Below, one piece after another: positions 10,194 through 42,707 of a DNA stretch of 64,000 nucleotides. The translations under genes and the position numbers were made by a program. The stretch is from Promethearchaeota archaeon (lineage in GTDB: Archaea; Asgardarchaeota; Lokiarchaeia; Sigyniarchaeales; SOKP01). The stretch is from assembly GCA_048937405.1 (NCBI GenBank), contig JBHLNF010000013.1, positions 1 to 64,000 of the forward strand, in the 5' to 3' direction. Under the pieces are notes generated by a model. It was not told the DNA's origin. It did not search any database and saw only the letters and a list, made by a program, of their open reading frames with translations. Within the stretch, counting starts at the first letter, position 1. Each line of letters begins with the position of its first letter.

Positions 10194-11159
10194 TTACAAT
10201 TTTGCTTCTAATATTCTTGTTATTGATATTCCTATAAGATCTTTACAAATACTTAAAAATTTAGAAATTATTCTTCTAATTATTATCTCTTCTTTATCAT
10301 TTTCAGAATTACTAGAAGAAAATAAGCTATTAATATCATCTATTTCTTTTTGAAAACTAAAAAGTGTTTTTTCTTGTATGTTATTATATTTTTGAACTAT
10401 CTTTAGCAATAGAACCGAAATTCTTTTGAGAATATGAGAATATTTATCTAATATATTTATCGGTAAATTCTTCAATTGAAATGCATAATCCATTAATTCT
10501 TTAGAGTATAATAAGGTAATTCTGTCCCCTAAAGTTCGAACTATTGGTCTATTAACTACATTATTTAGATTAGGATACTTTAATAATGTATGAAGTAATA
10601 TTCGCAATCCTAAATTATACTTCCTAGAAAACTTTTCTTTATAAATATCTTGATTAACGACTGATGATTTATCAATGACTGAATTTATGAAATCATTAAT
10701 TATATTAAACAGTTCAATTAAGATTTCAGGTAAAGAAATTCTTCTTAAATCTAATAAAAATTGAATACAAATTTCATTACCTTCACTTATTATACTTGAA
10801 TCAAAGCCTATTATTTTTCTTTGTAGATTATTTACCATATCATAATAATCTTTATTATTTTTTTCAACTTCAAATTTTAAATACAATTTATCTACACTTA
10901 ACTTAAAGGCAGTTAATATTAACTCTTCAAACAAATTGGAGGACCAATCTTTTAAATCTAATTTTATAACTGATTCTCCTTTTTTATAATTATTTTTATG
11001 AATTAGAATAGTTTCGTCATCTATAGGAAAAACTGATACTTTTGAATGTTCTTTCAAGTGAGTTTTATTAAACCATTCTTGGGGGAATGTAATTGCCATC
11101 GAATTCCCAAGTTTAATTACACTTCTTTCATAATTTTTACTATCTGCCATACTTTTCAA
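10194..11159 (-). CDS. AbrB-domain/PhoU-like archaeal regulator
   Basis: RSVIKLGNSMAITFPQEW AbrB/MazE signature followed by helical PhoU-like region. Confidence 0.75.
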   Translation of the reverse strand: MKSMADSKNYERSVIKLGNSMAITFPQEWFNKTHLKEHSKVSVFPIDDETILIHKNNYKKGESVIKLDLKDWSSNLFEELILTAFKLSVDKLYLKFEVEKNNKDYYDMVNNLQRKIIGFDSSIISEGNEICIQFLLDLRRISLPEILIELFNIINDFINSVIDKSSVVNQDIYKEKFSRKYNLGLRILLHTLLKYPNLNNVVNRPIVRTLGDRITLLYSKELMDYAFQLKNLPINILDKYSHILKRISVLLLKIVQKYNNIQEKTLFSFQKEIDDINSLFSSSNSENDKEEIIIRRIISKFLSICKDLIGISITRILEAKL

Positions 11160-39698: not shown

Positions 39699-40358
39699 AT
39701 GGCAAGAAAGAATCAACTCCCAAAATTCCCCGATGATTACTTACTTGAAAAAGCAGAAGAGTATAATAATTCAAAATGGATGAAACGCAATCAAAACAGA
39801 ACTACTCTTCAGAGTATTAAATATCTTTATGATAAAAAATTAGAAGATGATAAAAAAACGGGGATAATAAAGAGAGAATCACCTTTAATTTTAGATTTAG
39901 GGTGTGGAACAGGCTTTTCATCAGAGATTTTAATTCAAAATGGTTTTCGAGTAATAGGAATTGATATTTCAGAAGATATGATATTAAAAGCAAGACAAAA
40001 AAAAAAAATTTTAAAAATCTATAATGATTTAGAATTAATTTTAGCAGATATTAACCATTTGCCTTTTAGAAGAAATAAAATCGATCATATTATCTCAATA
40101 TCATCATATAACTTCATAACATATGGATTAGAAAATTATGGTGAGAAATTTAAACTCCTTAATGATACAGCACAGAAGCTACATGAAATATTACAGAAAA
40201 ATGGAAGAATTGTAATTGAATTTTATCCTAAAGATGAGAGAGAATTGAAAATGTTTAATAAATCATTTATCAATAATAATTTTGAAGGATATATGGTAAA
40301 AAGTAACCCCAATCAAAAATCGGGTCAAACTTTTTTATTACTCAAGAAGAAGATGTAA
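39699..40358 (+). CDS. class I SAM methyltransferase resembling Bud23/WBSCR22
   Basis: ILDLGCGTG, GIDIS, LPFR, IISIS, EFYPK, NPNQKSGQTFLLL. Confidence 0.8.
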   Translation: MARKNQLPKFPDDYLLEKAEEYNNSKWMKRNQNRTTLQSIKYLYDKKLEDDKKTGIIKRESPLILDLGCGTGFSSEILIQNGFRVIGIDISEDMILKARQKKKILKIYNDLELILADINHLPFRRNKIDHIISISSYNFITYGLENYGEKFKLLNDTAQKLHEILQKNGRIVIEFYPKDERELKMFNKSFINNNFEGYMVKSNPNQKSGQTFLLLKKKM

Positions 40359-40360
40359 AA

Positions 40361-41431
40361 ATGGGAACTTGTAAATTTTGCGGGAAAACTGAAAAGGTGA
40401 TCTCAGATATTTTACAGGTGTGTAGAACGTGTATTTTAGAAGGAGATTGGGAAAAAATAAAACCTCATATATTAAATGTTCACAAACAAGTTCGTCAGCT
40501 GGTAAACCTTCCAGAAAAACCACCTAAGGCAGAACGACCGAATATCAAATTAAAATGTAATCTATGCATTAATGAATGTTCTTTATCTGAAAATGACGTG
40601 AGTTATTGTGGTTTGAGAAATATTCAACTTAGAAATTCAGGTGAACTACCATATCCTTCAAAATCGAAAGGATATATTCATGGGTATATAGATCCAAATC
40701 CTACAAATTGTTGCAATAGTTGGTTTTGTCCAGCAGGAACTCCAGCAGGTTATCCAGAATATTCAGATTTCGATAGTGCAGAATTTGGGACATATAGTTA
40801 TGCGGTATTTTTATATGGATGTTCCTATAATTGTCTAAGCTGTCAAAACTTTTCTCATAAATTTTTTTCAAAAAAGCATTTATTTGACGTTGAGACTTTG
40901 TCGAGTCAAATTGTAAAAAACAAGAAGATTACATGTTTATGTTATTTTGGAGGTACTCCTGAAGTTCAACTACCCTTTTCAATTAATTTAGCTGAGAATA
41001 TTATTGAAAAAATTGAAAAATTAGGAGAAAAAAGAATAATGAGGATTTGCTGGGAATGGAATGGCACTGGAAACAGAGAATGGGTGGAAAAATGCATGCA
41101 AATTGCTATAAAAACTGGAGGAAATATTAAGTTTGATTTAAAAACATTTAATGAAAAATTAAATCTTGCTCTATGTGGTATACCTAACAAAAGAACTTTA
41201 AACAACTTTCAATTTCTGGCTGAGAATTATTTTGGTACCAGAAAAGGTTTACTAGAGATGAGTGCGTGTACATTATTGGTTCCCGGGTATATAAATCACA
41301 AAGAAGTAGAAAAAATAGCTAATTTTATCAGTTCTATTAATAGTGAAATTCCTTACAGTTTATTAATATTTCATGGAGATTATCAAATGCGAGATTTAGG
41401 AATCACACCCCGCCCCGTAAACAAGCCTTAA
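40361..41431 (+). CDS. radical SAM protein (PFL-activating-enzyme/AmmeMemoRadiSam-like); C-terminus frameshifted
   Basis: CSYNCLSCQN, GGTP, WEWNG, KFDLK, TLLVPGY. The expected tail (..LKNVHLGN..) lies in another frame to 41505, after a CCCCG duplication. Confidence 0.85.
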   Translation: MGTCKFCGKTEKVISDILQVCRTCILEGDWEKIKPHILNVHKQVRQLVNLPEKPPKAERPNIKLKCNLCINECSLSENDVSYCGLRNIQLRNSGELPYPSKSKGYIHGYIDPNPTNCCNSWFCPAGTPAGYPEYSDFDSAEFGTYSYAVFLYGCSYNCLSCQNFSHKFFSKKHLFDVETLSSQIVKNKKITCLCYFGGTPEVQLPFSINLAENIIEKIEKLGEKRIMRICWEWNGTGNREWVEKCMQIAIKTGGNIKFDLKTFNEKLNLALCGIPNKRTLNNFQFLAENYFGTRKGLLEMSACTLLVPGYINHKEVEKIANFISSINSEIPYSLLIFHGDYQMRDLGITPRPVNKP

Positions 41432-41614
41432 AATGCTTGGATGTTGCTAATAAATATCTAAAAAATGTGCATTTAGGGAATAAATTTTTATTGGGATTTT
41501 CTTGAAATTATTTGAATTGCTCTTTATCAATTCTATAATAAAATTTATTTAATAGGAATAATTTCGATAACACAGCAAACGTGATTTTAAATAAATTTTC
41601 GTGGTGAGTGAAAA

Positions 41615-41920
41615 ATACAAAAAGCACGCATACGGTTGTCATCTACTCAATTAAATGCATTACAATCAGTATGCGAACAAGTTCAAGCGGTATGTAGTTC
41701 TCAAGGAATTCGAAAGAATGGACCTATCCCACTCCCTACCAAACGATTACGTGTTCCTGTTAGAAAAGCTCCTTCTGGGCAAGGTACTGCAACTTGGGCA
41801 AAATTTGAGATGCGTATTCATAAACGTTTATTTGAAATTATTGCTAATGAGAGAAGCATGCATCTTATTATGAAGATTCAGATTCCTGAATCAGTATTAG
41901 TAGAAATTGAATTAATGTAA
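41615..41920 (+). CDS. rpsJ: 30S ribosomal protein uS10
   Basis: GPIPLPTKRL, RKAPSGQGTATW, MRIHKRL. Conserved N-terminus (M)QKARIRLSS starts at ATA 41615 after GGTGA. Confidence 0.95.
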   Translation: MQKARIRLSSTQLNALQSVCEQVQAVCSSQGIRKNGPIPLPTKRLRVPVRKAPSGQGTATWAKFEMRIHKRLFEIIANERSMHLIMKIQIPESVLVEIELM

Positions 41921-41945: not shown

Positions 41946-42707
41946 TTATAACACCCCTAAATCAATTTGAGTTGGTTCATTAGCCAATTTTGCTTTTTTA
42001 TCGATCTGAATACTATTAACATAATAGATGTTCCCTAAAATCTCAGATCCTTGACCAATTGCAACGTCTTTACCTTTGATATCTCCTTCTACACGGGTTT
42101 TAATTATATCGACGTTCTTTTTAGCTAATATACTCCCTTGTATTTTATAATGCTGTTTTTTTATTTTTTCCCTTGAAATTCCAAAAAAAATGTTTTCGGC
42201 AATAATATTTCCTCCAATACTAGTAGTTCCATCAATAGAAATTTTTTTTTCAGAAGCTAGATTCCCATTTATTTCTGAAGAACCAGAAAAATTTATTCCT
42301 TGATCTCCTCTAACAAAATGTCCTGCCTTAAAATTTCCTGAAACTATTAAAGATCCTTGAATATTTATCACATTTCCTATTTCTGTTGACCCAGAAAAAT
42401 CAGCTTCTCCATCTCCAACAAGAAACCCCGCAATATTCAATGAACCCGAGCTACTAATATCCCCATGTACAGTTAAATTCCCGGATCCCTTTATCATTCC
42501 ATTTGAAGTTAAACCGTTGCATTCTAAATCTCCATTAATTGTTCCTGAACCTGAAATTCGAAGAGATTTATTAATTTTTCCTCCTGAGATTTTAGCAGAT
42601 CCAGAAGCACTAATATGTTCCTCAAATTCCATTAAATCTCCAGAGCTAGTTATCACAGCTCTTTTTTTATCTTGCTTAATGGAATTATCTTCATTTTTTT
42701 TAATCAT
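41946..42707 (-). CDS. polymer-forming (bactofilin-like) beta-helix protein
   Basis: Repeated ISGSGTINGDL / V.GDI...G / I.GNI.A units. Confidence 0.8.
   Translation of the reverse strand: MIKKNEDNSIKQDKKRAVITSSGDLMEFEEHISASGSAKISGGKINKSLRISGSGTINGDLECNGLTSNGMIKGSGNLTVHGDISSSGSLNIAGFLVGDGEADFSGSTEIGNVINIQGSLIVSGNFKAGHFVRGDQGINFSGSSEINGNLASEKKISIDGTTSIGGNIIAENIFFGISREKIKKQHYKIQGSILAKKNVDIIKTRVEGDIKGKDVAIGQGSEILGNIYYVNSIQIDKKAKLANEPTQIDLGVL

Follow-up and report, generated by a model that had tools for sequence, protein, structure and literature searches.

From which codon is the ribosomal protein uS10 (rpsJ) translated when its reading frame offers no ATG, GTG or TTG ahead of the conserved archaeal N-terminus? 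The question is raised by a locus of a Promethearchaeota archaeon (Lokiarchaeia; Sigyniarchaeales; SOKP01; assembly GCA_048937405.1, referred to as G000), for which we analysed positions 1-64,000 of contig JBHLNF010000013.1, a stretch of 64,000 nucleotides hereafter called the window. On the plus strand the uS10 frame reads TAA (41588) ATA AAT TTT CGT GGT GAG TGA (41609-41611) AAA ATA (41615-41617) CAA AAA GCA CGC ATA CGG TTG (41636-41638) TCA TCT ACT, and translation of this frame from 41588 onward gives a stop, INFRGE, a second stop and then KIQKARIRLSSTQ. A GGTGA motif at 41603-41607 is separated from the ATA at 41615 by a 7-nt spacer (41608-41614), and the in-frame TGA, two codons 5′ of the ATA, overlaps the end of this Shine-Dalgarno (SD) region. 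In the window sequence no in-frame ATG, GTG or TTG lies between the TGA at 41609 and position 41636, so that a mechanical ORF list begins the gene at the TTG and yields a 94-aa MSSTQL product; the GTG triplets at 41601, 41604 and 41608 are all out of the uS10 frame. The sequence therefore reads as the first-pass annotation had described it, with QKARIRLSS encoded 5′ of the first TTG, behind an ATA, a TGA and a GGTGA 7 nt away, and with no canonical start available upstream in frame.

The frame read from the ATA comprises 101 codons and a TAA stop at 41918-41920 (41615-41920, plus strand). Its product matched the Pfam family Ribosomal_S10 (PF00338) with 91 bits, against a cut-off of 21.2, over residues 5-99 of 101, and a PDB search returned end-to-end matches to the solved Thermococcales uS10 chains 6tmf_M, 6skf_Am and 6sw9_L (E = 1e-34 to 1e-32). 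With the query read from the codon before the ATA, its residues 2-101 corresponded to residues 1-100 of the PDB chains, which places the ATA residue exactly on Met1. An AlphaFold2 model of uS10 built with 30 relatives (mean pLDDT 84.4) predicts strands at residues 2-10, 33-50, 61-77 and 94-100 and helices at residues 13-30 and 79-86, and thus has the beta-alpha-beta-beta (long hairpin)-alpha-beta order of the uS10 fold. In this model strand beta-1 is formed by residues 2-10, QKARIRLSS, which bears out the earlier statement that ARIRL is part of the first beta strand of the fold. The gene is single-copy, with one match in the G000 genome (100 % complete, 4.47 Mb, 29 % GC), and as the sole copy it must be functional; the high expression that the first-pass annotation ascribes to it is an assumption. 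A reassignment of ATA to methionine was considered and ruled out, because an internal ATA of the uS10 gene aligns with a conserved Ile of solved archaeal uS10.

To follow the start region through the lineage we took uS10 5′ ends from approximately 105 species genomes of the family and order. The Met position is ATA in all 39 species of the window's genus (g1), followed by CAA or CAG, then AAA and GCN, and preceded by GGTGA (once GGTGG). The same codon is found in 11 species of four sister genera (g16, g17, g20 and g23), a twelfth species having ATT, and over the whole alignment of rpsJ 5′ ends ATA occupies the position in 51 species and ATT in one. The codon just before the ATA varies within the genus (AAA, AAC, ACA or AGC), and a stop codon, TAA or TGA but mostly TAA, lies one or two codons 5′ of the ATA in most species. 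Where no such nearby stop is present the frame stays open for a further 2-18 codons, and at none of the ATA loci do these codons include a canonical start. The peptide QKARIRLSS is invariant in the genus and its codons vary synonymously (CAA/CAG, GCN, CGN/AGA, ATA/ATT, TTG/TTA/CTT), nearly all nucleotide changes between the ATA and the TTG being synonymous. One species of the genus has nearly all of these codons recoded, reading GCT AGA ATT AGA CTT.

Beyond the genus the start codon turns over. The uS10 starts are ATA in g1 (39 species), g20 (2) and g23 (1), ATA (5) and ATG (1) in g16, ATA (3) and ATT (1) in g17, and ATG (12), TTG (12), GTG (4), ATA (1) and GTT (1) in g12. Genera g13, g14, g15 and g18 use GTG, ATG or TTG, g19 has TTG (2) and TCG (2), and in g21 the start is a TTG displaced upstream by one codon. 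In other families of the order it is ATG, which for some of them lies one or two codons 5′ of this position; the family of G032, a single-contig genome of 4.4 Mb, is among those with ATG. On the well-supported branches of a uS10 tree, ATA/ATT and canonical starts must have replaced one another three times or more, a lower bound without polarity or order of events, as it comes from a quick and poorly resolved tree of 100 columns.

In three of these species the codon is neither canonical nor ATH. Two g19 species, at loci L067 (G048:C7:8415-8874) and L069 (G058:C131:4954-5413), have TCG at the start position, 7 nt after GGTGAG, with no canonical or ATH start near the TCG in frame in either locus; their sister species have TTG at the start position and are without GGTGA. 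In one further species (L082, G121:C198:378-840) GTT occupies the uS10 start position, 6 nt after GGTGA. Simple near-cognate pairing does not account for the TCG and GTT starts.

The motif ahead of the ATA was compared with the 3′ end of 16S rRNA. The 16S gene is absent from the G000 assembly and from four of the five relatives tried, and for this reason the 3′ end was read from a genome of the same genus, G023, where it ends in ...GGATCACCTCC. This sequence is complementary to GGTGA(T), which identifies GGTGA(T) as a true SD core, and GGTGA(G) at 41603-41608 in the window pairs with it. Among the 51 ATA loci, 49 have an SD match of at least 5 nt (GGTGA or longer) at a gap of 5-7 nt, 12 of the 21 ATG loci are without any SD match, and the TTG or GTG loci have SD matches of only 3-4 nt (5 nt at one GTG locus), often at a gap of 10-11 nt; related species are not independent, so that these raw counts overstate the association of ATA with the SD site and describe a pattern rather than a statistical test. 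The repeated exchange of ATA and canonical codons alongside changes in SD strength amounts to a natural experiment on the trade-off between start codon and SD site.

The leader itself shows no sign of conserved folding. For 38 leaders RNAalifold predicted no base pairs, and in folding the native leader does not surpass shuffled sequences (z = +1.26), an absence of structure in keeping with an open initiation region. A pairing of an upstream ACCGTA with the TACGGT of codons 6-7 into a hairpin was considered and dropped on these results.

Archaeal initiator tRNAs are distinguished by an A1:U72 pair and by three G-C pairs that close the anticodon stem. No initiator was found among the 7 and 14 tRNAs reported by aragorn (with and without introns) or among 20 matches to Rfam RF00005, which we attribute to the introns carried by tRNA genes in this genome; with only 14-20 tRNA genes found genome-wide by these programs, most tRNA genes of G000 would appear to be intron-rich. 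A pattern search returned one candidate initiator tRNA with A1:U72, the anticodon stem CAGGG/CCCTG (GGG/CCC) and the anticodon CAT. The candidate gene (G000:C3, minus-strand position 10338) is 166 nt long and has at least one intron after the anticodon loop. With a CAT anticodon the reading of AUA requires a C-A mismatch at the third position.

These observations have to be set against explanations in which uS10 starts at another codon or its mRNA or decoding is altered. That an ATG was misread as ATA in sequencing or assembly has practically no probability left: ATA is found in 51 independently assembled species genomes, and contigs of four DNA runs from two studies, with summed depths of 43 to approximately 355, contain variants at 41610, 41614, 41626 and 41635, the same differences as are seen between species, but none at 41615-41617. 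As the contigs of all four runs keep ATA although neighbouring positions vary, a misread ATG, which the first-pass annotation had named as a way in which its reading could fail, is excluded at the DNA level. Initiation at the TTG at 41636, giving a 94-residue MSSTQL protein with the QKARIR codons untranslated, has in its favour that TTG is a canonical start and is the one chosen by the ORF listing and by many public gene calls, but it is extremely improbable. This codon, Leu8 of the 101-residue frame, is TTG in only 27 of the 39 species of the genus and TTA in 11 and CTT in one, so that it is not conserved as a start, there is no SD site before 41636, and the seven codons upstream of it are invariant in protein with variation confined to synonymous sites. 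Such a protein would also lose most of strand beta-1 (residues 2-10), and solved archaeal uS10 has this strand from residue 1. A canonical start could instead be supplied by altered mRNA or decoding, through an A-to-G edit that turns AUA into AUG, a slip by -1 over the A-run from the out-of-frame GTG GTG (41601-41606), or read-through from upstream, and this group of explanations we regard as very improbable. In the window and in one other locus (L003) a GTG or ATG in another frame is followed by an A-run (GAA AAA TAC) on which the ribosome could in principle slip, but the out-of-frame start and the A-run are missing in L005, L011, L012 and many others, and the frameshift was ruled out because it is not conserved across the genus. 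Read-through would have to pass stops that are mostly TAA and lie one or two codons before the ATA, we know of no mRNA A-to-I editing system in archaea, and any altered decoding would need a site-specific event at each of dozens of unrelated genes that have the same pattern of an ATH codon behind an SD site.

The leaderless alternative keeps the AUA and differs in how it is reached, and it depends on which upstream element is the promoter. An AT-rich 23-nt promoter-like element, AAATTTATTTAATAGGAATAATT (41541-41563, plus strand), recurs in the 38 displayed loci of the genus at a distance that varies from approximately 45 to 100 nt 5′ of the ATA, and with up to 3 mismatches allowed the 4.47-Mb genome contains no other copy of it but 3 poor matches. 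It is probably the BRE/TATA promoter, perhaps with an operator, of a stand-alone uS10 gene, in which case transcription starting approximately 23 nt 3′ of it would produce a leader of about 40 nt containing the SD site. Closer to the gene is an A/T block, TTTTAAATAA (41586-41595, plus strand), 8-10 nt 5′ of the SD site and conserved in position across the genus, where the consensus of the proximal region is atTttAaAtaa..TTT..TGGTGAgtaAAA.ATA. This block may be either an A/U-rich part of the leader or a second TATA box giving a leaderless transcript from around the ATA. If the latter holds, the TTTAAATA box at 41587-41594 would act as promoter, transcription would begin at about 41615-41617, the 5′-terminal AUA would be bound directly together with the initiator tRNA, and GGTGA would lie in untranscribed DNA and not be an SD site. 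The archaeal TATA box is usually centred near -26, and the TATA-like block at -28 to -21, whose position is conserved and whose 3′ end falls approximately 20-22 nt before the ATA, suits this spacing. Leaderless mRNAs are moreover common in archaea (PMC7531240). We nevertheless consider this route to the AUA unlikely and weight SD-led initiation well above it on the strength of the SD site: no block of the leader is better conserved than GGTGA, which matches the 16S tail and whose spacing of 6-7 nt recurs at dozens of other genes, and ATA tracks SD strength across the family. The much better conserved and gene-unique element further upstream would lead to a transcript with a leader, chance TATA-like strings are frequent at 29 % GC, and known leaderless initiation uses a 5′-terminal AUG, GUG or UUG (PMC7531240).

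The comparative evidence, namely the conservation of ATA, its association with the SD site, the synonymous pattern of change behind it and the failure of the TTG to be kept, supports the original proposal of an AUA start. We consider it very likely that uS10 is translated from the AUA at 41615 in an SD-led manner, with the ordinary initiator and as a lineage trait, and an AUA start as such, with the leaderless variant counted in, leaves little room for doubt. In SD-led initiation at this locus GGUGA(G), seven bases 5′ of the AUA, would pair with the 3′ tail of 16S rRNA (...GAUCACCUCC) and so bring the AUA into the small-subunit P site, where the ordinary initiator Met-tRNA (anticodon CAU) would read it with a third-position mismatch. 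The transcript is taken to include the SD site, and the weakness of the codon may be offset by a strong and well-spaced SD site and an unstructured A-rich initiation region. Start-codon proofreading by aIF1 is presumably lax or tunable in this lineage. The product would be a normal 101-residue protein, MQKARIRL..., with Met presumably inserted at the AUA; its N-terminus would be (M)QKARIRLSSTQLNALQSVCE, as against MSSTQL... for a start at the TTG. The long fixation of a codon with a third-position mismatch in an essential single-copy ribosomal protein gene would mean that the SD-anchored archaeal initiation complex works with AUA well enough to supply a ribosomal protein.

To determine whether such starts occur elsewhere in G000 we scanned the genome for codons located 6-7 nt after GGTGA that are followed by 100 or more open codons and have an in-frame stop upstream, with no canonical start between it and them. 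The scan returned 29 ATG, 14 TTG, 5 GTG, 20 ATA, 19 ATT and 4 ATC codons, compared with 0-2 each for the composition-matched controls AAT, TTA, TAT and TTT, which corresponds to a roughly 20-fold enrichment. Among the genes with ATA or ATT in this position are those for uS4, uL15, PolD DP2, response regulators and small GTPases, the P-loop of the GTPases being encoded 5′ of the next canonical start. ATA and ATT therefore act as starts behind GGTGA genome-wide, which makes them a trait of the lineage and not a peculiarity of uS10. In uL15 (G000:C7:218519; L194/L225) an ATT start 6 nt after GGTGA is present in at least 15 genomes of the genus, and three other genomes of the genus have an ATG one codon downstream. 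In uS4 (G000:C28:552393; L193/L195) the start is ATA, with an ATT one codon before it; all 22 other members of the genus with a match have ATG, so that the change to ATA is species-specific.

The gene for the start-codon proofreading factor aIF1 (SUI1; G000:C29:22004-22330, minus strand; L191) was also inspected. In this one genome its zinc-knuckle, CAIC...CIC, is encoded 5′ of the first in-frame ATG, GTG or TTG, and an upstream TAA is followed by GAG AGT ATT; aIF1 thus also seems to use an ATH start. As a tentative proposal, which we hold at somewhat less than an even chance, relaxed or tunable start selection may be a heritable trait of this Lokiarchaeial family, in which AUA and AUU would be routine starts when accompanied by a strong SD site and would repeatedly have replaced ATG, GTG or TTG even in essential single-copy ribosomal protein genes, with aIF1 itself made from such a codon. 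If this were true, a single feedback loop would tie the stringency of initiation to the output of many genes, among them those of ribosomal proteins, and close relatives of eukaryotes would possess a genome-wide archaeal version of infC control.

A search of the literature, most subscription journals being outside its reach, yielded no report of Lokiarchaeia starting translation at AUA or AUU, and a 2020 review gives AUG, GUG and UUG as the only archaeal start codons (PMC7531240). Canonical SD-led initiation in archaea is exemplified by the aEF1A mRNA of P. abyssi, GGAGGUGAUUUAAAUG (PMC6237735; reviewed in PMC7531240), which shares with uS10 the GGUGA core, the same 16S tail, a similar spacing and presumably the same set of factors. 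The uS10 AUA differs from these starts in that it mismatches the initiator anticodon at the third and not the first position and belongs to a codon class unlisted for archaea in that review. The uS10 case is one of non-AUG initiation behind an SD site, made notable by its fixation in an essential archaeal ribosomal protein gene and by its being part of a lineage-wide trait.

The closest bacterial parallel is infC, which encodes IF3 and uses AUU for autocontrol, such initiation depending on the stringency of fidelity factors (PMC4705826). What uS10 shares with infC and with other rare bacterial AUU and AUA starts is that an essential gene of translation has no start but a near-cognate AUH codon, which an SD site positions and which different species have kept. 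The uS10 host is by contrast an archaeon with eukaryote-type factors (aIF1 and aIF2), the gene encodes a ribosomal protein rather than the fidelity factor itself, and AUH starts occur here in dozens of genes instead of one or two. Among archaeal factors, aIF1 of Sulfolobus selects against AUU in vitro (PMC4705826). In Haloferax volcanii, approximately 30 % of the putative alternative initiation sites detected by ribosome profiling fell on near-cognate codons; the authors set these aside as possible false positives (PMC7261190). The Haloferax sites show that archaeal ribosomes can engage such codons, but they are secondary sites, whereas the uS10 ATA is the only and conserved start of an essential gene.

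A 'rare ATT start codon' has been inferred, in the methods of one paper, for the tubulin AtubA of a Kariarchaeaceae Asgard MAG (PMC13394414). As with uS10, the deposited AtubA protein is without its first beta strand, which is regained when the frame is read from an upstream ATT plausibly spaced from a ribosome-binding site, again in an Asgard archaeon. The AtubA case differs in concerning one gene in one genome and ATT; that of uS10 concerns ATA in at least 50 species, a universal ribosomal protein, turnover across the family and an association with SD strength.

For genome annotation these starts have direct consequences. For four loci with ATA in the DNA, NCBI records give a 101-aa MQKARIRL product, and at least 25 of the 120 public uS10 clusters listed are 94-aa truncations, others being 85-91 aa in length; public annotation of uS10 is thus inconsistent. 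In most public MAGs of the group, callers of the Prodigal type leave no more than 94 residues of uS10, and by extension they miss or shorten dozens of other genes, and starts mis-called in this way distort Asgard protein families, phylogenomic marker sets and structure predictions.

Several further features of the uS10 loci were noted. Two loci with an ATA start carry an insert in the coding sequence, L060 (G045:C135:24541-25033) one of 30 nt after codon ~61 and L090 (G134:C9:148584-149077) one of 31 nt after codon ~30; the frame is broken by these inserts or meets stops within them, and they resemble mRNA introns of the tRNA (BHB) type. Genome G020 has a second copy of uS10, the fortieth copy in the genus, with a GTG start (L110, G020:C143:3567-4029) and on a separate 5.8-kb contig. 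Over the stretch shown, this copy does not differ from a g12 locus (L085) in its upstream region and start, and the contig is probably contamination in the G020 MAG.

The usual archaeal arrangement links tuf to rpsJ. Judging from the neighbouring ORFs this linkage is absent here. Upstream of uS10 and in the same direction the window contains a class I methyltransferase-like ORF (39699-40358) followed after 2 nt by a radical SAM ORF (40361-41431; Pfam Radical_SAM and Fer4_12). A methyltransferase gene likewise precedes uS10 in locus L022 of another family (f2). An abutment of uS10 with the upstream gene in other families ('TGA..ATG') was rejected, the TGA in L022 being part of a GTGAT SD-like motif within a 285-nt spacer. 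Downstream, a convergent ORF on the minus strand (41946-42707) encodes a protein of 253 aa with a bactofilin domain (PF04519, 38 bits).
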